This document shows, in pieces, positions 4,059 through 35,055 of a stretch of DNA of 64,000 nt; within the stretch, counting starts at the first letter, position 1; each line of letters opens with the position of its first letter. A model generated the notes under the pieces. The model had not been told where the DNA came from, did no database searches, and saw only the letters and a list, made by a program, of their open reading frames with translations. A program made the translations under genes and the position numbers. This stretch comes from Escherichia phage vB_EcoM_G2494, in the sequence record MK327935.1; one strand, 5' to 3'.

Positions 4059-4646
4059 CTAAATATCTAACCAAGACAAGTCAGATCCGCCAAAGATTTT
4101 TTCGACGGCGGATCTATTTTCTTGATGATATAAGTTAAAACATGGTATCCCATGTCTACGGGCAACATAAACAGCAATTCTAGTTCCTCCCGAAACGATT
4201 CCATTAACTTCTTTCGCCCAAAATATCACACAATCTACAGGGTCATCAAGTGTCTCACCTAAGACTTGAGCAACATTTCTAGAAAACAGATTTTGCATGT
4301 ATAACGGTATAGAACGAGGATTATCATAAACGTGTTCTAATTCATCCATCGCCAGATTTTTTTGTTCTAAGGTTTGCCATGCAATCACATCATGACCGTT
4401 ATGCTTGTGGTCATAAAACTTCCAATTTGGAATGAAAATTTTTCTATAATCTGGATCGTAATACTTCATGAAAGCATTGTCCATACCGTAAGCCCCTCCA
4501 GAATGCGCTACAACGCGATTTTCTGACAATACCCTCCCAATGGTACTAGCCATTATCAAAATGTCGCTAGGCGCTTTTCTAGAGCCTATTAAAGCACATC
4601 TACGAAGTGGTTTTACTCCAAATAGATCTTGTAACTGGTCAAACAT
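4059..4646 (-). CDS. SLOG/DprA-like Rossmann-fold protein (195 aa)
   Basis: GSR motif (res 21-23) and SGGAYGMD (res 49-56) typical of the DprA/Smf-LOG (SLOG) superfamily; ATG start. Confidence 0.5.
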   Translation of the reverse strand: MFDQLQDLFGVKPLRRCALIGSRKAPSDILIMASTIGRVLSENRVVAHSGGAYGMDNAFMKYYDPDYRKIFIPNWKFYDHKHNGHDVIAWQTLEQKNLAMDELEHVYDNPRSIPLYMQNLFSRNVAQVLGETLDDPVDCVIFWAKEVNGIVSGGTRIAVYVARRHGIPCFNLYHQENRSAVEKIFGGSDLSWLDI

Positions 4647-18220: not shown

Positions 18221-18703
18221 TTTTGCTAAATCATTGCAATATTTTAGTGCCTTAGTTTGAAATTCTGCGCTGTTAAGTTCTTCATAACGGTCATAATCAC
18301 CGTTTAATGCTGCCTTTCTTGCTTCTTGCTCTATCTGCATGTCAGACATGATAATACAGCGATCCCGTGCTTTCATCTTCTCAAGTTGTATAGACTCTTC
18401 TTTCTGCTTGCGCAATTCTTCTTGACGCTTCTTTTCTTCTTGTGCTTTCTCTTCCCGCGCTTCTTTGATTGCATCCTTGAACATCTGCGTTTGTGGTGCT
18501 AAACCAACTTTAACGCGATCTACGTCTCGACGTTCCATTTTAGAAATAAAGCATGATTCGATCTTATCATCACTTGCATATGTTGCTTTACATTCACGAA
18601 GCAAGAAAACCGGATCTGATTTAGCATTCATCATAGCTTCCATGTTAGCACAACCAGTAAGCATGAATACAGCCGCAAGACCAATTAGTTTAATCATTTT
18701 CAT
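18218..18703 (-). CDS. predicted lipoprotein with coiled-coil region (161 aa)
   Basis: Signal peptide with lipobox LTGC (MKMIKLIGLAAVFMLTGC); GAGGTG SD. Confidence 0.6.
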   Translation of the reverse strand: MKMIKLIGLAAVFMLTGCANMEAMMNAKSDPVFLLRECKATYASDDKIESCFISKMERRDVDRVKVGLAPQTQMFKDAIKEAREEKAQEEKKRQEELRKQKEESIQLEKMKARDRCIIMSDMQIEQEARKAALNGDYDRYEELNSAEFQTKALKYCNDLAK

Positions 18704-19524
18704 TTAGTCACCTCACCGAAAATTGTAAATTGTCTACGATTCTCATCGCCGAAAGATTCTACTACGTCGTTTACCTTGACGCAAGTCCCGCGCGGTAAAA
18801 TTACTTCACATTCGCAAGGGTTCCATGCAATGGACCCAACAACAAAACCTTTATGATCTTTTACATCAATCACCCATGATACATTACAAGAATGTTGCAT
18901 CTTTCCGGTCATTGATTCATATCGATTCTCACAATAAAGGCTAGTGCTGTTTGAAAGCCATCCTCCAAAGATGATCGGTGTCATGCTAGTAGATACAAAG
19001 TTTTTAAAGGTAAATTCCTTATCTTCAATAATACGCTCTATTGTCTGAATGTCAAGATGTTGACCGCGATAAAGAGTACCGTTTAACTTTTCGGTTTTAT
19101 CCATGACACAATCCATCAAATCAACAATCTCTGATATCTCATCGGTCATGTCTTCTTCCCCTAAGAGAGCACCATTTACCCATTCGTATTGTTCAGACAC
19201 ATAATCACAGATTGCATTATATTCTGCTGGGGTTATGTTGTTATGTTTGTAATGTTTGAATACATTATCTCCAAAGTCTTCGGAGTGTACTTCATACATC
19301 ACATTAATGATTTTCTTTACAAATCCATAATCTTGTGTCTCGCGCTCAAGGAAGCGGATAACCTTCACATAATCATCAAAGTTAATCTGATCGCTGATCA
19401 TTTCAGTGATCATGTAACCATTAATACCATCAATGTCATATGTTTCGATGTAATTATCCATACGTTCCATCATTGATTCGCGTGATTCTTCCGAAAGACG
19501 AAAATCCTGTAATTTCTTGAACAT
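18700..19524 (-). CDS. ADP-ribosyltransferase-like protein (Alt/Mod family paralog, 274 aa)
   Basis: R (LYRGQ), STS (FVSTSMT) and ExE (CECEVILPRG) motifs in the order seen in the Alt C-terminal domain. Confidence 0.6.
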   Translation of the reverse strand: MFKKLQDFRLSEESRESMMERMDNYIETYDIDGINGYMITEMISDQINFDDYVKVIRFLERETQDYGFVKKIINVMYEVHSEDFGDNVFKHYKHNNITPAEYNAICDYVSEQYEWVNGALLGEEDMTDEISEIVDLMDCVMDKTEKLNGTLYRGQHLDIQTIERIIEDKEFTFKNFVSTSMTPIIFGGWLSNSTSLYCENRYESMTGKMQHSCNVSWVIDVKDHKGFVVGSIAWNPCECEVILPRGTCVKVNDVVESFGDENRRQFTIFGEVTK

Positions 19525-19602: not shown

Positions 19603-21654
19603 TTACATTTTAAATTTATCTGGCATTGCGTCTACCGATACCAGATCAGCGATAAGCTGACGTAGAGTTGCCTTATCTGCTTTCTTACGTTCGGTTTTAG
19701 CTTCGGTAATAAATCTGGAGAAAGACAGGTCAGAAGCAGGTTTAACAACACCTTCACGGATGAATGCATCACCGTCCGCGATCATCTCACCAGATTCTTG
19801 TAATGCTGCCAGTTCATTTTTGTTCATAATATGTGCCTCAATGTAATAAGTTTCTTGTGAATCCGTCGATGCCGTAGCACGAGTTACCGTATCAAAGGAT
19901 AACACAACACCGCGAGGAAGTAAAATCTCGCATTCTTTGTAAGCAAATGCTTTGTTACCTACTGGCAACACAGGGATGTTTTCCGCGCCAGCAATGGAGA
20001 AAGCAACATTAGCGCCACCTTCACCGCGAGAGCCAGCCATAGAATCAACACCAGCAACGGCACTAGCCACGTTTGCATTCCAGCCGCCAAAAATGTTAGG
20101 TGCAAGGGAAGTGCTCACATAGTTTTTAAAGTAAAACGCTTTTTGCTTACGTGCAGTTTCCCACATTTGCGACCGGAAGTCCATACCACGATACAGAATA
20201 GTACCCGGATCAAGTTTAACGCCATAGTTGGAGAAGGCATTATCCAGTGCATCACACATCTTGACCAATTCTTCTGGATCTGCGATGCCTTCAAACTCTT
20301 CCAGCTTACGGTCGGTTAGGAAGTTGTTCATATTGATGTATGCTGCATCGGCATATTCGCTCAACACAAAACCTTCCGCGCCTGGCAGATCAAGATCAAT
20401 ATTTGCCATCATTTCACCCATGTTGCTAGCAATTGCTTCAAACATACCGGAAGCAACATTACGTAGGGCATCGGTTTTAATCTGGGTGATATGACTACGC
20501 AGCATTTCAGCTTTTACATCTGCTGGCATAGACTGGTCTACTCGATCCATTGCCAGGGCGGTGATCTTGTTTTCGAATACTTCCTCGCTCATGATTTCTT
20601 TTAAGCGTTTGATTGATGCTGCGATAACTTCCGCAGACAACGGATCATATTGATCCTGAACTTTTACCAGTTCGCTTACTGCGTATTTTGCATCGGCTTC
20701 GCTTTCAAAAATAGTACGCATGAAACCATAGCGAGTGATAATATCACTTGTCCATTCATTCAGAGAACGGGCGGTTGAACGTTCTAAGGCTTGACGATCA
20801 ATCAGAGTATTAAACTGTTTCTTAGGTTCGGCTTCGGTGATATCTTCTTCCGGTTTAAGATTAATTTTTTCTGGATGATTCACATAGTCGCTGTTATAGG
20901 TCGCTTGAGTTTTCAGCATTTCTTCTTTAGTCAAACGAGATTTAGCCGCTACGCGTTGTTCCGCTTCCGCGTTTCGTTCTTCTTCTGACACCAGACTAGC
21001 CGCATACGCCTCATCTTTAGTCAGAGATTCACCAGTAGCCTTAGATACCCAGCGATCACCTAAATCACTTTCTACTTTAGTGAACAAGGAATCATCAAGT
21101 TTAATCCCTTTAATCTTATCAATCGCCATACCGCGACGTTTGACAACAACTAAAGCGATCTTTTTGCTGGTCATTACTTCCTGCTGGAATACTTCAAACT
21201 TCGGTGTACGACGCACCAAACGCTCTATAACGCGCTTAACCAGTTCGGTCTTACCTTTCATGCGGGATACGTTAAAACGGAACATAACAGCGTCTAATTG
21301 CGCTTTACGGGCTGTTTCCATAACCACATCAAAAGCACTTGCCATAACTGCAATCGGGTTATCGCCTAGACCATTTTTAAGCTGTACAATACGACCGCTT
21401 TTGTTCATTTCGCACAGTACAACATGTGCGGTCTTGTCACCCATACGAATGATTTTAGGTGTTTTGTTGGTGAAGTTACAAAGACGGACAATCACATCTT
21501 TATCGCGTGTCTGTACTGCAAAAAGCTGTTTAGGATTCTGCTTAGGCTTTAAGCACTGTACCGGAGCAATACTGCCAAAGTTTTCTTCCTCTTCCGTCAA
21601 CAGCCATTTCTCGAAAGATTCAATCATTAGATCGTCGATTTCTAAGTTAAACAT
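19603..21654 (-). CDS. alt: Alt ADP-ribosyltransferase (packaged early-acting ART)
   Basis: 683 aa; C-terminal YRGMDFRS ... YVSTSLAP ... YKECEILLPRG R-S-ExE motifs; position between 54 and 30 as in T4. Confidence 0.8.
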   Translation of the reverse strand: MFNLEIDDLMIESFEKWLLTEEEENFGSIAPVQCLKPKQNPKQLFAVQTRDKDVIVRLCNFTNKTPKIIRMGDKTAHVVLCEMNKSGRIVQLKNGLGDNPIAVMASAFDVVMETARKAQLDAVMFRFNVSRMKGKTELVKRVIERLVRRTPKFEVFQQEVMTSKKIALVVVKRRGMAIDKIKGIKLDDSLFTKVESDLGDRWVSKATGESLTKDEAYAASLVSEEERNAEAEQRVAAKSRLTKEEMLKTQATYNSDYVNHPEKINLKPEEDITEAEPKKQFNTLIDRQALERSTARSLNEWTSDIITRYGFMRTIFESEADAKYAVSELVKVQDQYDPLSAEVIAASIKRLKEIMSEEVFENKITALAMDRVDQSMPADVKAEMLRSHITQIKTDALRNVASGMFEAIASNMGEMMANIDLDLPGAEGFVLSEYADAAYINMNNFLTDRKLEEFEGIADPEELVKMCDALDNAFSNYGVKLDPGTILYRGMDFRSQMWETARKQKAFYFKNYVSTSLAPNIFGGWNANVASAVAGVDSMAGSRGEGGANVAFSIAGAENIPVLPVGNKAFAYKECEILLPRGVVLSFDTVTRATASTDSQETYYIEAHIMNKNELAALQESGEMIADGDAFIREGVVKPASDLSFSRFITEAKTERKKADKATLRQLIADLVSVDAMPDKFKM

Positions 21655-30596: not shown

Positions 30597-31070
30597 TTAC
30601 TCCTTATTTTCGCGCTCGTACTTTTCGAAATAAAATTCTACTGGCTGGTCGTGGATTGACAGTAAGCCAAAGCGTTTAGCCGCTCGCAATCCCATATTGC
30701 GCTGAATGTACTTCTGGAAGTTCTCGCGTATACACTTACGCCAGTATTCTAAGCCCATACAGCTTTTGTAAAGATTGCATTGCACACAAGCCGGATTCAT
30801 ATTATCAAGTATATCGTGCTCCGGTTTATGCATTCCTACAACCTTATACTTCCACGATCCATCATCATTACGGGCAATTCGTCCATTTTCATCATAGACT
30901 ACCTTTGAGCGTCGCAATACTGGTTTGATGTGGTCTGCGTGCCATCGGTCCCCTAGTTCCTCGCCACAATAGGCACAACGCCCACCGTATTTCATTTTCA
31001 GGATCTGGCGTTGCTCTTTCTTTGACAATTTTTTAGGTTTAGGGGCTTTCGCCCCTTCATTATCACACAT
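30597..31070 (-). CDS. free-standing HNH endonuclease (157 aa)
   Basis: CAYCG ... HADHIKP ... CVQCN HNH/zinc motifs. Confidence 0.65.
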   Translation of the reverse strand: MCDNEGAKAPKPKKLSKKEQRQILKMKYGGRCAYCGEELGDRWHADHIKPVLRRSKVVYDENGRIARNDDGSWKYKVVGMHKPEHDILDNMNPACVQCNLYKSCMGLEYWRKCIRENFQKYIQRNMGLRAAKRFGLLSIHDQPVEFYFEKYERENKE

Positions 31071-32559
31071 CGAATACCTCTTTTACTGTATTTGCAGTGG
31101 TCTTGTCGTAGCGAATACGTTTGATGATCGGGAGAAATAAAGAGAACTCCGGTTCATCTTCTTTACGTGATTTGCTGCGGATATACCCGTTGCATGTCAT
31201 CTCAATGACTTTTCCAATCAGGTTATGACGGTCAGCCCATAACATTTCTCGGTCGAGTTCATTTCGACGATCGAACGGAATTACACGTTCAGTACCATCA
31301 TCACCTTTTTCGGTTGTAGTGTCGGTTAATCCCGATCCGGTGTTAGTCATCATTCGTCCGCACGCACTACGGACAGTAAAACCGCCTACCTTATTGGGGT
31401 CTTTACTATGCGGATATGCATCAACAATTTCCGCGTCGAAGTCAATCACTTCTTTAAATTTAACCTGATCTTTACTACGGCGATCTTCAAATACACCATG
31501 TAAATTTTTAAGGATAATACCTTCTAAGCCCATGTTTACATAGCGATGATATACTTCGCGAGCTTCATCGATATTGTTAACTACAGTGTTTTCGATTATC
31601 TGAACACGAGGATCGTTAAGTTCTTCAACAATCTGTTTTAGTTCTTCGAATCGATCTTTATATTGCTTCGTTGCTTTCTCGTTTCCGTAATACACATCAC
31701 GGTCGATAACATCCCAGACAGTGTAAACAATACATTGGGCTTCTTCTTTTGGAATAGTTCCTTTAAGTGATTTGTTGAGGATACCATTTCCGGTCTGACG
31801 ATCTGCAACAACGGATTCTTTCACTGCTTCCGCTACTGGCGTTAATGGCATTTCCTCTTCTTCAAATATCCATGACAGAGTACCATCATAAACGCTTTCA
31901 ACGAAGTTCTGCGCTGGTGTTTGCGAAAGGGTAGGCATATATACCAATTCGCCATCTAGAACAATTCCACGGCCTCGTAGACGCTCTAAAACCGCAAACA
32001 AATCATCAAGTCCTTGATAGGTATTACCTGAGCGGGTATAGATTGCTAATGTTTCCCCGTCAATATCAGCCATACCACGAGCGCCATCGCTTTTAAGTTG
32101 TGCATACGCCGGATACTTGATATTAGCAATAGTCTTATCAGAACATGACGATGCAAGGTGGCACGGCTGCTGGGGGATCAGTTTCTTCCATACCTTGTTT
32201 GCAGTGGTAGCGGAACAACCGCATTCCAGGTCACGATTCAGGACCATCATTGCAACTTTAGCATCATCTTCTGACAAGCAAGTCAGAGTATCGGTAACTA
32301 GCTGTAATGCTGCATTACCAGTTACTTGACGCGTGGCAAGTTTATTTTTAAAGACCTGCAATGCACCGGATAAAGACAATACAGACGAATAACGCGATGG
32401 TTTATCGTATTTCTTTACGCCAAACGTAACCTGTTTGCAATATGCCAGATAAAAGCATTCTTTCAGCGTTTCATTGCTCGCGGATTCTTTCAGAATCTTT
32501 TCTTTCAGCGATGTTTTGTCTGTTGTTGCAAGCTGATTAATGATATTAAGAATTGACAT
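31063..32559 (-). CDS. 30: ATP-dependent DNA ligase gp30
   Basis: KSDGAR adenylation motif (QLKSDGARG), collinear similarity to T4 ligase; ATG at 32559 with GAGGTG SD (track start GTG at 32565). Confidence 0.9.
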   Translation of the reverse strand: MSILNIINQLATTDKTSLKEKILKESASNETLKECFYLAYCKQVTFGVKKYDKPSRYSSVLSLSGALQVFKNKLATRQVTGNAALQLVTDTLTCLSEDDAKVAMMVLNRDLECGCSATTANKVWKKLIPQQPCHLASSCSDKTIANIKYPAYAQLKSDGARGMADIDGETLAIYTRSGNTYQGLDDLFAVLERLRGRGIVLDGELVYMPTLSQTPAQNFVESVYDGTLSWIFEEEEMPLTPVAEAVKESVVADRQTGNGILNKSLKGTIPKEEAQCIVYTVWDVIDRDVYYGNEKATKQYKDRFEELKQIVEELNDPRVQIIENTVVNNIDEAREVYHRYVNMGLEGIILKNLHGVFEDRRSKDQVKFKEVIDFDAEIVDAYPHSKDPNKVGGFTVRSACGRMMTNTGSGLTDTTTEKGDDGTERVIPFDRRNELDREMLWADRHNLIGKVIEMTCNGYIRSKSRKEDEPEFSLFLPIIKRIRYDKTTANTVKEVFDV

Positions 32560-33025
32560 TTTCACCTCGTTTTGTTAAACGTTCACGAATATCATTGAGG
32601 ATACTACAAAATTCCGATTCAGTCAATATAGTCTTTAACGGATCTGTTCCACCTATACTATGACGCAATTTCTTATTTCCTGTAGCGAGTAATGCTTTAC
32701 AAAATTCTGGGTTATTCCGTGCCATCGTAACAAATGCCAGATGTACCAGTCTGTAATAATGCTCACTCATTCGATGAATCGGGCGACCCTGAAAATATAA
32801 CATGTGATTCTCAGTCTTTTCAGTTCTTCCGGTTCTTTTTGCTTTGCCACCGTGCATCAAAAAGATTTCTCTTTGTCTCTGAGGGTTCTTAAATCTTAGC
32901 CCCTGTAAAAATCCTTCTGTGCTGTTAATATCGCAACCAAATAGACGGAATGGTCTTTTATTGAAGTTACTCAATTCACCAGATGGATAAGGTCCACCCG
33001 CATAGATATCAATTTCAGAAGTCAT
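32546..33025 (-). CDS. NADAR (YbiA/DUF1768)-like protein (159 aa)
   Basis: GELSNF ... INSTEGFLQGLRF ... CKALLATGNKKL resembles YbiA FSNF ... TSEHYFQAQKF ... LRALLLAT pattern. Confidence 0.5.
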   Translation of the reverse strand: MTSEIDIYAGGPYPSGELSNFNKRPFRLFGCDINSTEGFLQGLRFKNPQRQREIFLMHGGKAKRTGRTEKTENHMLYFQGRPIHRMSEHYYRLVHLAFVTMARNNPEFCKALLATGNKKLRHSIGGTDPLKTILTESEFCSILNDIRERLTKRGENVNS

Positions 33026-33179
33026 TGAAACTAATCTCGCTAATCAGAGAGAACGGATCATAATCGTCATTAGGAATATCGATAGTAATCGAATGAGGAT
33101 TTACCCATACACCAAAGTGGTCTTCTTCGGTGAATACTTCGGTATGGATTTCGTGGATGTTTACATTCATAGTTTTCAT
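33015..33179 (-). CDS. small hypothetical protein (54 aa)
   Basis: Hand-translated; AAGGAA SD. Confidence 0.35.
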   Translation of the reverse strand: MKTMNVNIHEIHTEVFTEEDHFGVWVNPHSITIDIPNDDYDPFSLISEISFNDF

Positions 33180-33261
33180 AATAAAATTCCTTAATAATCA
33201 ATAACTTACAAAATCATATAGCCAAAATATAGGCGGGATTATTTCCCGCCGTTTAAAATCA

Positions 33262-33585
33262 TTAACCGTAAACTACCACAATATTCTGTTTGTGCGTTAC
33301 AGTCCATTTCAGGTCGATCTCTTCTTCCTTCTTAACGCCGTTAATAACGTCTGGATGAGGAACTTTATTAAGTTTCCCATGAGGAAGCAATACAGTCTTG
33401 CCCAGCAATTCTTTATCAACGTTATCACCGATATCAATAATCTTACCGACTAAAGGAATCTCTCCCATAGTTCGTTTTTGCTCGATGATAATACCAAAAT
33501 CGCTCTTTACTTCGGTCCCTGCGCTTTCCGCTTTAGCTTCAATGATCACATAGTCACCAAGTGCTTTAGGAGTTTTAACGGTCAT
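33262..33585 (-). CDS. 31: co-chaperonin gp31 (GroES-like)
   Basis: 107 aa, GroES-like sequence, position after gene 30 as in T4. Confidence 0.8.
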   Translation of the reverse strand: MTVKTPKALGDYVIIEAKAESAGTEVKSDFGIIIEQKRTMGEIPLVGKIIDIGDNVDKELLGKTVLLPHGKLNKVPHPDVINGVKKEEEIDLKWTVTHKQNIVVVYG

Positions 33586-33621
33586 AATTTTCTTACCTCT
33601 TCAATTCATCTCAATAGTAAA

Positions 33622-34233
33622 TTATTTATATTTCGCGACCTTTGGATTTCGCCGCAGACCGGAATGTATTTGCGCTATACAACAATAAGAAACATTAAAC
33701 ATATCAGCTATAATTTGCTTCTTAACTTTTCCTTTAAGCCGCATTATTTCTTCGACTTGCGCATTTGTCAGTTTTGCCCGTGAGTGGTTTTCACCGACAT
33801 TGTTATTGAGTCCAGTTCTAAATGAATGTCTCATATTTTCTAGTAAGGTTACTATTTCTAGATTCCACACATAATTGCAGGTTTTTACACCATTGATGTG
33901 ATTAACCTCAAGTCCGGTAACGTCTCCTAGAAATGCATTTGCTACAAGTCGATGTATCTTTTCGGCTTTAACTGAGATTTTACCATTGTCGTTTTGTTTT
34001 GACAATGTTGAATAATAATATCCATATCGGTCTAAAATTGGTTTTATTATTTTACCAGCACGTTTTTGCTTTACGAGCTTAATATTACCGGGAGAAACTT
34101 CTCTATAAAATTCGATACTTCGGTCAATAGATCTCAATCTACCATAATTAGAGATTTCATACCACGGATAACCTACAGCTTGTCTCCATTCTTCCGGCGC
34201 TGGTAATATGATATTATCATCTTTTGTTTCCAT
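33622..34233 (-). CDS. HNH homing endonuclease with NUMOD4-like N-terminal motif
   Basis: EWRQAVGYPWYEISNYGRLRS and HRLVANAF ... VNHINGV ... NLE; ATG at 34233 (track start TTG). Confidence 0.7.
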   Translation of the reverse strand: METKDDNIILPAPEEWRQAVGYPWYEISNYGRLRSIDRSIEFYREVSPGNIKLVKQKRAGKIIKPILDRYGYYYSTLSKQNDNGKISVKAEKIHRLVANAFLGDVTGLEVNHINGVKTCNYVWNLEIVTLLENMRHSFRTGLNNNVGENHSRAKLTNAQVEEIMRLKGKVKKQIIADMFNVSYCCIAQIHSGLRRNPKVAKYK

Positions 34234-34235
34234 TG

Positions 34236-34556
34236 TCAACTGCCACCATGAATTTCGACGATCTGCGCTGGTGTTAAACCGTCTACATTAATCAGACTAT
34301 CAAGCCCAAAACTACAGAAACCTTCAACTGCAATTTCATATACTGGCAAAGATGTTTCTGATTCTTTACGCGGTTTTTCAACATTAGGAACTAACCACTT
34401 TTCGTATGTTTCGAAAGGCATCAGTGCCGGATCTCGCGTGGCGATCATCTCACGGACAGTACCATCTTTCTTAGTAAACTGCAAAGAGTGAGTACCGACC
34501 GAAAACATTTTCTTTAGTGCTTCACGAAGTGCGATATTATCAACTTGTTCAGTCAT
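34236..34556 (-). CDS. hypothetical protein (106 aa)
   Basis: ATG at 34556 (track start TTG). Confidence 0.5.
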   Translation of the reverse strand: MTEQVDNIALREALKKMFSVGTHSLQFTKKDGTVREMIATRDPALMPFETYEKWLVPNVEKPRKESETSLPVYEIAVEGFCSFGLDSLINVDGLTPAQIVEIHGGS

Positions 34557-35055
34557 TATCAATACCCTTCAAATCAGTCAATAATGCTTTTGGAATACGC
34601 GTGATCGTAATATCTGCATTATTCAGAATATCAGCCCAATCACGCCCACCATTTCGATCATATGTGTCGCAATAGTATAAATGTTTAATTCCACTGTTTG
34701 CAATTGCTTTAGCGCAATCTGGACACGGTGAAGCAGTACACCACATACTAGCGCCTTCAATCGATACACCGCTACGGGCAGCAAACAAAATAGCATTTAA
34801 TTCAGCGTGGATCTCGTTTTTCTGTGACCATGCACTATGCTCTGGTCGTTTTTCTGGGATCATTTTTCCTTCATCATCCAGCCAACCGCTTTTATGTGCA
34901 TGACAGCTACAGTTTTCTTGTCCTGCTGGAGTGCCGTTAAATCCAGTAGAAATGATTCGCCCGTCTTTTTCGATCAGTGCGCCTACCTTCCACGAAACGC
35001 ATTTAGAGTTCTTTGCGATTAGATAGGCGATCTGCATGTAAGTTTGTGACAACAT
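34549..35055 (-). CDS. cd: dCMP deaminase
   Basis: HAELNAI and PCPDCAKAI zinc-binding motifs. Confidence 0.88.
   Translation of the reverse strand: MLSQTYMQIAYLIAKNSKCVSWKVGALIEKDGRIISTGFNGTPAGQENCSCHAHKSGWLDDEGKMIPEKRPEHSAWSQKNEIHAELNAILFAARSGVSIEGASMWCTASPCPDCAKAIANSGIKHLYYCDTYDRNGGRDWADILNNADITITRIPKALLTDLKGIDND

Follow-up and report, generated by a model that had tools for sequence, protein, structure and literature searches.

Gene 30.3 of an RB49-type Escherichia phage encodes a probable NADAR-fold counterpart of the T4 anti-DarT factor AdfN

Gene 30.3 of Escherichia phage vB_EcoM_G2494 (sequence record MK327935.1) lies at positions 32546..33025, on the minus strand, of the 64,000-nucleotide stretch analysed here, which we refer to in its entirety as the window. 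The open reading frame (ORF) begins with ATG and encodes 159 residues, exactly as it had been delimited by an earlier, model-made annotation of the same DNA (hereafter the sequence-only reading). We consider it likely that this RB49-type gene specifies a small, single-domain N-glycosidase of the NADAR fold, which removes the ADP-ribose attached to guanine by host toxins of the DarT1 type and so allows the phage to escape abortive defence of the DarTG1 type. The direct support obtained in this analysis consists of family membership, fold, active-site conservation, an intact C-terminal helix, and purifying selection, whereas enzymatic activity and the anti-DarTG1 phenotype are established for the T4 protein AdfN and not for the protein encoded in the window.

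The region matches the genomes of Krischvirus phages, G37-3, PHB13, ECD7, KFS-EC, and GEC-3S among them, at 97-99% identity, and the window protein is 99.4% identical to the 'gp30.3' of phage RB49 (genus Krischvirus; record AJ550428). Its score with PF08010 (Phage_30_3, 'Bacteriophage protein GP30.3') is 133.3 bits (cutoff 36), the match extending from position 2 to position 138 of the 138-position profile, and it matches phrog_652, the family that also contains T4 gp30.3, with an E-value of 7e-45. In a BLASTP comparison with T4 gp30.3 (from NC_000866), 38% of the residues are identical (E 9e-31), and the alignment takes in practically the whole of each protein. Judged by these matches, the gene is the RB49-type (Krischvirus) orthologue of T4 gp30.3/AdfN. 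It is an ordinary member of a known and experimentally characterised family whose biology has already been published, and public records of the RB49-like copies nonetheless carry labels such as 'gp30.3, unknown' or 'hypothetical protein'. Approximately 1,500 phage records contain homologues, most of them from T4-like myoviruses whose hosts are enterobacteria, Acinetobacter, Aeromonas, and Vibrio, and in a large protein library the gp30.3 family comprises 988 clusters at 50% identity.

The sequence-only reading had proposed a NADAR-like enzyme from three short blocks, GELSNF (residues 16-21), INSTEGFLQGLRF (residues 33-45), and CKALLATGNKKL (residues 109-120), which it compared with FSNF, TSEHYFQAQKF, and LRALLLAT of E. 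coli YbiA, and it had named the lack of a NADAR profile hit as grounds for abandoning the idea. All three blocks are present. When the window protein is searched as a single sequence, a match to PF08719 (NADAR) is found, but its score of 15.5 bits lies below the gathering threshold of 35.1 (E 0.021), so that the outcome of this check is formally borderline. The protein's own dedicated Pfam family is PF08010, and among 73 members of the gp30.3 family, 17 match PF08719 at E<0.01, the best at 1.1e-6. A single-sequence phmmer search of the sequences in the PDB found no NADAR, and profiles built from the family were therefore needed for this comparison. A profile of 14 gp30.3-family sequences had YbiA (2b3w) as its sole PDB match (E 0.01); with 73 sequences YbiA was again the best match (E 7.9e-4), followed by the Phytophthora NADAR 8bau. 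Because the family profile places the SNF, Glu-x6-Lys, and LLAT blocks in register with those of YbiA, the motif correspondence is not due to chance. A phmmer match to DltA among the PDB sequences (E 7e-4) was rejected as spurious, and a very weak match to the NCBIfam model 'NADAR family anti-phage protein' (14.7 bits, cutoff 240) was not used as evidence.

Structural comparison points in the same direction. The model of the window protein displays the fold of YbiA, an alpha-helical core flanked by two small sheets, and its neighbours in BFVD are gp30.3-like phage proteins (TM score of approximately 0.9) and, after these, dozens of proteins that bear the name NADAR. The link at the level of sequence is weak, although it points only to NADARs, and it is the modelled fold that decides in favour of the protein being a member of this superfamily; the structure and the family-level evidence together override the sub-threshold PF08719 score.

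The residues expected at a NADAR active site can be located with some precision, and the frequencies given below refer to 167 family domains taken from representatives at 50% identity. The N-terminal 'SNF' motif of the fold corresponds to L18-S19-N20-F21 (32963..32974, minus strand), which aligns with FSNF in YbiA and LSNF in PnNADAR, and its L, S, and N are each present in 155-160 of the domains. Glu37 (codon GAA, 32915..32917, minus strand) corresponds to E36 of T4 AdfN, E43 of PnNADAR, and E88 of E. coli C7 NADAR, a register established by pairwise alignment for T4 and by the family profile for 8bau and 2b3w. This glutamate is invariant in alignments A1 and A3 and is found in 161 of the domains, and its equivalents are catalytic residues that contact the distal ribose (PMC11543638, PMC11825919). 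His122 (codon CAT, 32660..32662, minus strand), which aligns with T4 H123 and follows the strand formed by residues 119-121 of the model, is likewise invariant in both alignments and is present in 160 domains. The residue at this location, after the last strand, is Glu in YbiA-type proteins, Asp in DarG1-type proteins, and His in phage NADARs (PMC11543638, PMC11125620, PMC12945103). Residues 136-157 (32555..32620, minus strand) form an alpha-helix in the model, and the alignment with the T4 protein runs to the T4 C-terminus, indicating that the helix whose loss inactivates RB69 AdfN (PMC11825919) is full length here. The catalytic Glu and His are conserved as Glu37 and His122; the position of the conserved lysine, where the sequence-only reading passed over a substitution, is occupied by Arg44 (codon AGA, 32894..32896, minus strand; T4 K43, PnNADAR K50, C7 NADAR K95).

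The T4 orthologue provides the functional precedent. Genetic mapping with chimeric phages identified gene 30.3 of T4 as the T-even determinant of resistance to DarTG1, and the gene has since been given the name adfN, which stands for anti-DarT factor NADAR (Johannesman et al., Nat Commun 2025, PMC11825919). T4 needs the gene in order to resist DarTG1, and the gene is enough to rescue RB69 on hosts with DarTG1; its product strips ADP-ribose from DarT1-modified DNA in vitro, whereas the E36A mutant does not; function is impaired by E36A, by K43A, and by a C-terminal truncation like that of the natural RB69 allele (PMC11825919). The enzyme cleaves guanine-ADP-ribose but not thymine-ADP-ribose (PMC11125620, PMC12945103). 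The suggestion made in the sequence-only reading, that the gene reverses DarT-type guanine ADP-ribosylation and counters DarTG-like defence, thus agrees with what has been demonstrated for T4 gp30.3 (PMC11825919; in vitro, PMC11125620).

The likeness between the two proteins extends to their Pfam and PHROG families, their single-domain architecture of approximately 150-160 residues, their active-site Glu and His, their intact C-terminal helices, the three structural neighbours that they share in the PDB, and the position of their genes between gene 31 and the ligase gene 30 on the same strand. The window protein differs in having Arg in place of T4 K43 and a C-terminus that is 7 residues longer, and the phage that encodes it is a Krischvirus, placed outside Tevenvirinae in current taxonomy. 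By analogy, we infer that the RB49-type protein bearing Arg44 shares the activity and the role of T4 AdfN. It would probably be made early in infection and would bind ADP-ribosylated guanine in phage DNA that had been modified by a DarT1-type host toxin, with Glu37 positioning the distal ribose, His122 acting at the same ribose in the role played by the Asp or Glu of cellular NADARs, and Arg44, instead of the usual Lys, binding the diphosphate of ADP-ribose. Hydrolysis of the C1''-N2 N-glycosidic bond that joins ADP-ribose to guanine would release ADP-ribose and leave the base unmodified again. The toxin would in this way be neutralised without being bound, and the restoration of replicable phage DNA would permit escape from DarTG1-type abortive defence.

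Other branches of the superfamily fit the window protein less closely. DarG1, the NADAR antitoxin of DarTG1 (E. coli C7; Geobacter lovleyi, 8bat), has Asp as its third catalytic residue where the phage protein has His, and an electropositive channel is built from its additional N-terminal elements; the phage protein consists of the bare core (PMC12945103). Identity to DarG1 is approximately 11%, and the window gene has a small ORF, gp31.-1, and a DNA ligase gene as its neighbours and no cognate DarT. The window protein is accordingly no DarG1 but an orphan enzyme that resembles an antitoxin. From the PF08719 families, represented by YbiA (2b3w) and PnNADAR (8bau), it is set apart by its sub-threshold score with that profile and, in the case of YbiA, by the presence of His where YbiA has Glu. 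YbiA has been implicated in an N-glycosidase activity on riboflavin intermediates and in swarming, and it provides no protection from DarT1 in vivo (PMC11125620).

Several observations, the PF08719 score among them, weigh against an anti-DarTG1 function of the RB49-type protein. Only 38% of its residues are identical to those of the T4 enzyme for which activity has been demonstrated. The phages included in the AdfN study were T2, T4, T6, RB69, and Bas35-47, with no RB49 or other Krischvirus among them, and T4 AdfN, which is reported to need a further T-even factor, works fully only in the context of a T-even infection (PMC11825919). In uninfected cells T4 AdfN fails to neutralise DarT1, and it rescues neither T5 nor Bas25. 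Our literature search for a link between DarTG and RB49 or Krischvirus found none. Seven residues after the catalytic Glu, where NADARs carry a phosphate-binding Lys, the window protein has Arg44. The efficiency of an Arg44 enzyme in vivo could be lower, because E. coli C7 NADAR with an engineered K95R substitution, while still hydrolysing guanine-ADP-ribose in vitro, fails to rescue cells from DarT1 (PMC11543638). The K43A substitution in T4 AdfN reduces rescue and causes only a partial defect (PMC11825919). Because this Lys is described as 'largely conserved' and is not a defining feature, Arg44 lowers confidence in equal activity but not in family membership. The exchange is a minor difference, and it is the sole point of modest interest that the gene presents.

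A protein with the same fold and the same N-glycosidase chemistry might nevertheless act on something other than DarT1-modified DNA, such as soluble ADP-ribose derivatives or NAD-derived immune signals, guanine-ADP-ribose in RNA, or the adducts of guanine-specific ADP-ribosyltransferases that are not DarT1. Comparative genomics has proposed low-molecular-weight ADP-ribose derivatives as the main targets of phage NADARs (PMC9503650), every NADAR family also clears guanine-ADP-ribose from RNA in vitro (PMC12945103), and replacement of Lys by Arg at the diphosphate-binding position could shift ligand preference. The size of the family (988 clusters) and the variety of its fusions, including those with Metallophos and leucine-rich repeat domains, are also compatible with a diversity of substrates. 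However, the sole genetic phenotype known in the family is DarTG1 counter-defence through de-ADP-ribosylation of DNA, and it has been observed for three independent phage NADARs, namely T4 AdfN and the unrelated proteins of Bas32 and Bas60 (PMC11825919). The window protein, moreover, retains Glu37, His122, and the remainder of the active-site pattern as in T4, and we regard a different physiological substrate as unlikely.

The Arg44 substitution could also mark an attenuated or decaying AdfN, its activity having dropped below the level needed for protection from DarT1, as in the non-functional RB69 allele. The failure of K95R to rescue cells (PMC11543638), the reduced rescue by K43A, and the existence of natural alleles that do not function, such as that of RB69 (PMC11825919), would be in keeping with such a history. 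The selection data argue against decay. The window protein has Arg44 in common with its 98% cluster and with a metagenomic relative of 68% identity, though not with one of 62% identity, and its AGA codon is conserved in the window phage, RB49, G37-3, and the 68%-identical relative L004. Among Krischvirus alleles of 30.3 the ratio of nonsynonymous to synonymous substitution rates (dN/dS) is 0.03-0.07; against L004 it is approximately 0.09-0.12, with synonymous sites saturated (dS of approximately 2), and across this entire range of 0.03-0.12 the AGA codon has been retained between the lineages. The low ratios and the persistence of the codon despite saturation argue, from the sequences compared, that the Arg form is functional. 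At this position, the 167 family domains have Lys in 152 instances, Arg in 9, and other residues in 4, and Arg recurs in at least 7 other 50%-identity clusters in which Glu and His are kept. As the gene is also full length, including its C-terminal helix, and as K95R remains catalytic in vitro (PMC11543638), we find attenuation distinctly improbable. Another possibility is that the Arg-bearing phage NADARs constitute a functional subclass with altered ligand handling, directed, for example, at another DarT1 variant or another ADP-ribose adduct, or independent of the T-even cofactor. This proposal takes its motivation from the maintenance of Arg44 under purifying selection in the RB49 lineage and from the recurrence of Arg in several unrelated gp30.3 clusters, and we put it forward only as a speculation that is rather unlikely to be correct.

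The two ORFs that the sequence-only reading had assigned to ADP-ribosyltransferases both match PF03496 above threshold. The smaller, of 274 residues (18700-19524, minus strand; 59 bits), lies immediately downstream of an Alt-like ORF of 683 residues (19603-21654, minus strand; 38 bits), so that the phage carries a tandem pair of these enzymes, approximately 11-14 kb from 30.3 and on the same strand. The Alt and Mod enzymes of T4 modify arginine in proteins. Regulation of the phage's own ADP-ribosyltransferases had been offered as a second role for the gene, and no evidence in support of it was found: that 30.3 erases or tunes the modifications made by this pair is very improbable, given the protein-arginine specificity of the T4 enzymes, the demonstration of NADAR activity on nucleobase adducts only (in PMC11543638, PMC11125620, and PMC12945103), the ability of DarTG1 alone to explain the phenotype of the T4 adfN deletion (PMC11825919), and the distance between the transferase genes and 30.3.

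Proteins of the gp30.3 family display architectures beyond the single domain. In phrog_652, whose profile has 296 positions, the match to single-domain proteins is confined to the second half. Four proteins in the representative library (P0018, P0062, P0113, and P0129) contain two tandem NADAR domains, the first of which keeps Glu and Lys, whereas the second lacks the catalytic Glu, with Asn, Ala, or Gln in its place, and keeps His; given this loss, the second copy may be a pseudo-enzyme or serve to bind substrate. Elsewhere the gp30.3 domain is fused to a calcineurin-like phosphoesterase (Metallophos, in P0058) or to BspA-type leucine-rich repeats (in P0060). In the set comprising P0058, P0060, P0024, P0041, and P0074, it is also found at the C-terminus of proteins of 465-497 residues, whose N-terminal part of approximately 315 residues has no Pfam match.

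Gene 30.3 sits within a densely packed block of minus-strand genes. On its downstream side is gene 30, which encodes an ATP-dependent DNA ligase (31063..32559, minus strand; PF01068, 79.8 bits) and is identified in addition by the RB49 annotation and by T4 gene order. If the ligase ATG is placed at 32559, following the RB49 annotation, it falls 14 nt inside the 3′ end of 30.3. The adjacency to ligase to which the sequence-only reading had drawn attention is real in this sense, although a functional meaning does not follow from it, and a coupling of the two proteins was considered and rejected. In T4, genes 30.1 and 30.2 intervene between 30.3 and 30 (NC_000866), and we infer that removal of a base adduct by a NADAR creates no nick that a ligase could seal. 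The ligase is thus a syntenic neighbour only: T4-like genomes share the order 31, 30.3, 30, and 30.3 directly adjoins the ligase gene in the window because 30.1 and 30.2 are absent.

Upstream of 30.3, a 54-residue ORF (33015..33179, minus strand; phrog_15277), which corresponds to RB49 gp31.-1 and is included for context, overlaps the start of 30.3 by 11 nt, and because of this overlap the two are probably translationally coupled. The ORF is also kept in L004, whose gene order (pseT, cd, WYL_2, 31, 31.-1, 30.3, ligase) matches that of the window. In T4, gp30.4 holds the equivalent position upstream of 30.3, yet it is unrelated to gp31.-1; the two proteins show no similarity and belong to different PHROG families, and the notion that gp31.-1 is the counterpart of gp30.4, and as such a possible conserved partner, was therefore discarded. 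Small co-transcribed ORFs of the gp31.-1 kind could nonetheless be candidates for a factor of the T-even type that T4 AdfN needs. Between gene 31 and the 31.-1/30.3 pair lies a strong terminator-like hairpin (33232-33250, minus strand), composed of GGCGGG, a loop, and CCCGCC followed by a T-rich tail, and the record of phage G37-3 annotates a terminator at the hairpin that follows gene 31. No enrichment of sigma-70-like promoter matches was detected between this terminator and 31.-1 (9, compared with 10.9 in shuffled sequence), and no convincing promoter was seen in the 50-nt gap. T4 gene 30.3 contains an internal out-of-frame ORF, 30.3' (positions 4403-4630 of the T4 comparison sequence, L001). 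The other minus-strand frames of 32546-33025 hold no ORF of 40 or more residues, and 30.3' is therefore not conserved in the window gene.

The block formed by 31, 30.3, and the ligase gene is flanked by two ORFs for HNH endonucleases, one of 205 residues (33622-34239, minus strand; NUMOD4 and HNH_3) and one of 157 residues (30597-31070, minus strand; HNH). Several close relatives match just approximately 80% of the region 31000-34300, and the annotation of G37-3 has shorter ORFs in place of the NUMOD4 region, which together with the flanking HNH ORFs suggests that these are mobile homing-endonuclease insertions. At 34236-34562 on the minus strand, a 108-residue protein with a WYL_2/Sm-like SH3 beta-barrel domain (PF10902, 33 bits) occupies the position of T4 gene 31.1 and is also present in L004.

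For the RB49-like records, it would be reasonable to relabel 30.3 as a phage NADAR, or AdfN-like DNA ADP-ribosylglycohydrolase, with a predicted anti-DarTG1 function. That prediction is of practical use when E. coli strains with DarTG1 are to be treated or controlled and suitable Krischvirus phages have to be selected. The significance of the finding beyond annotation is otherwise small, except that the natural Arg44 bears on how much weight the conserved Lys has in vivo, since the engineered K95R enzyme lost its capacity for rescue, while these phages keep Arg under selection.

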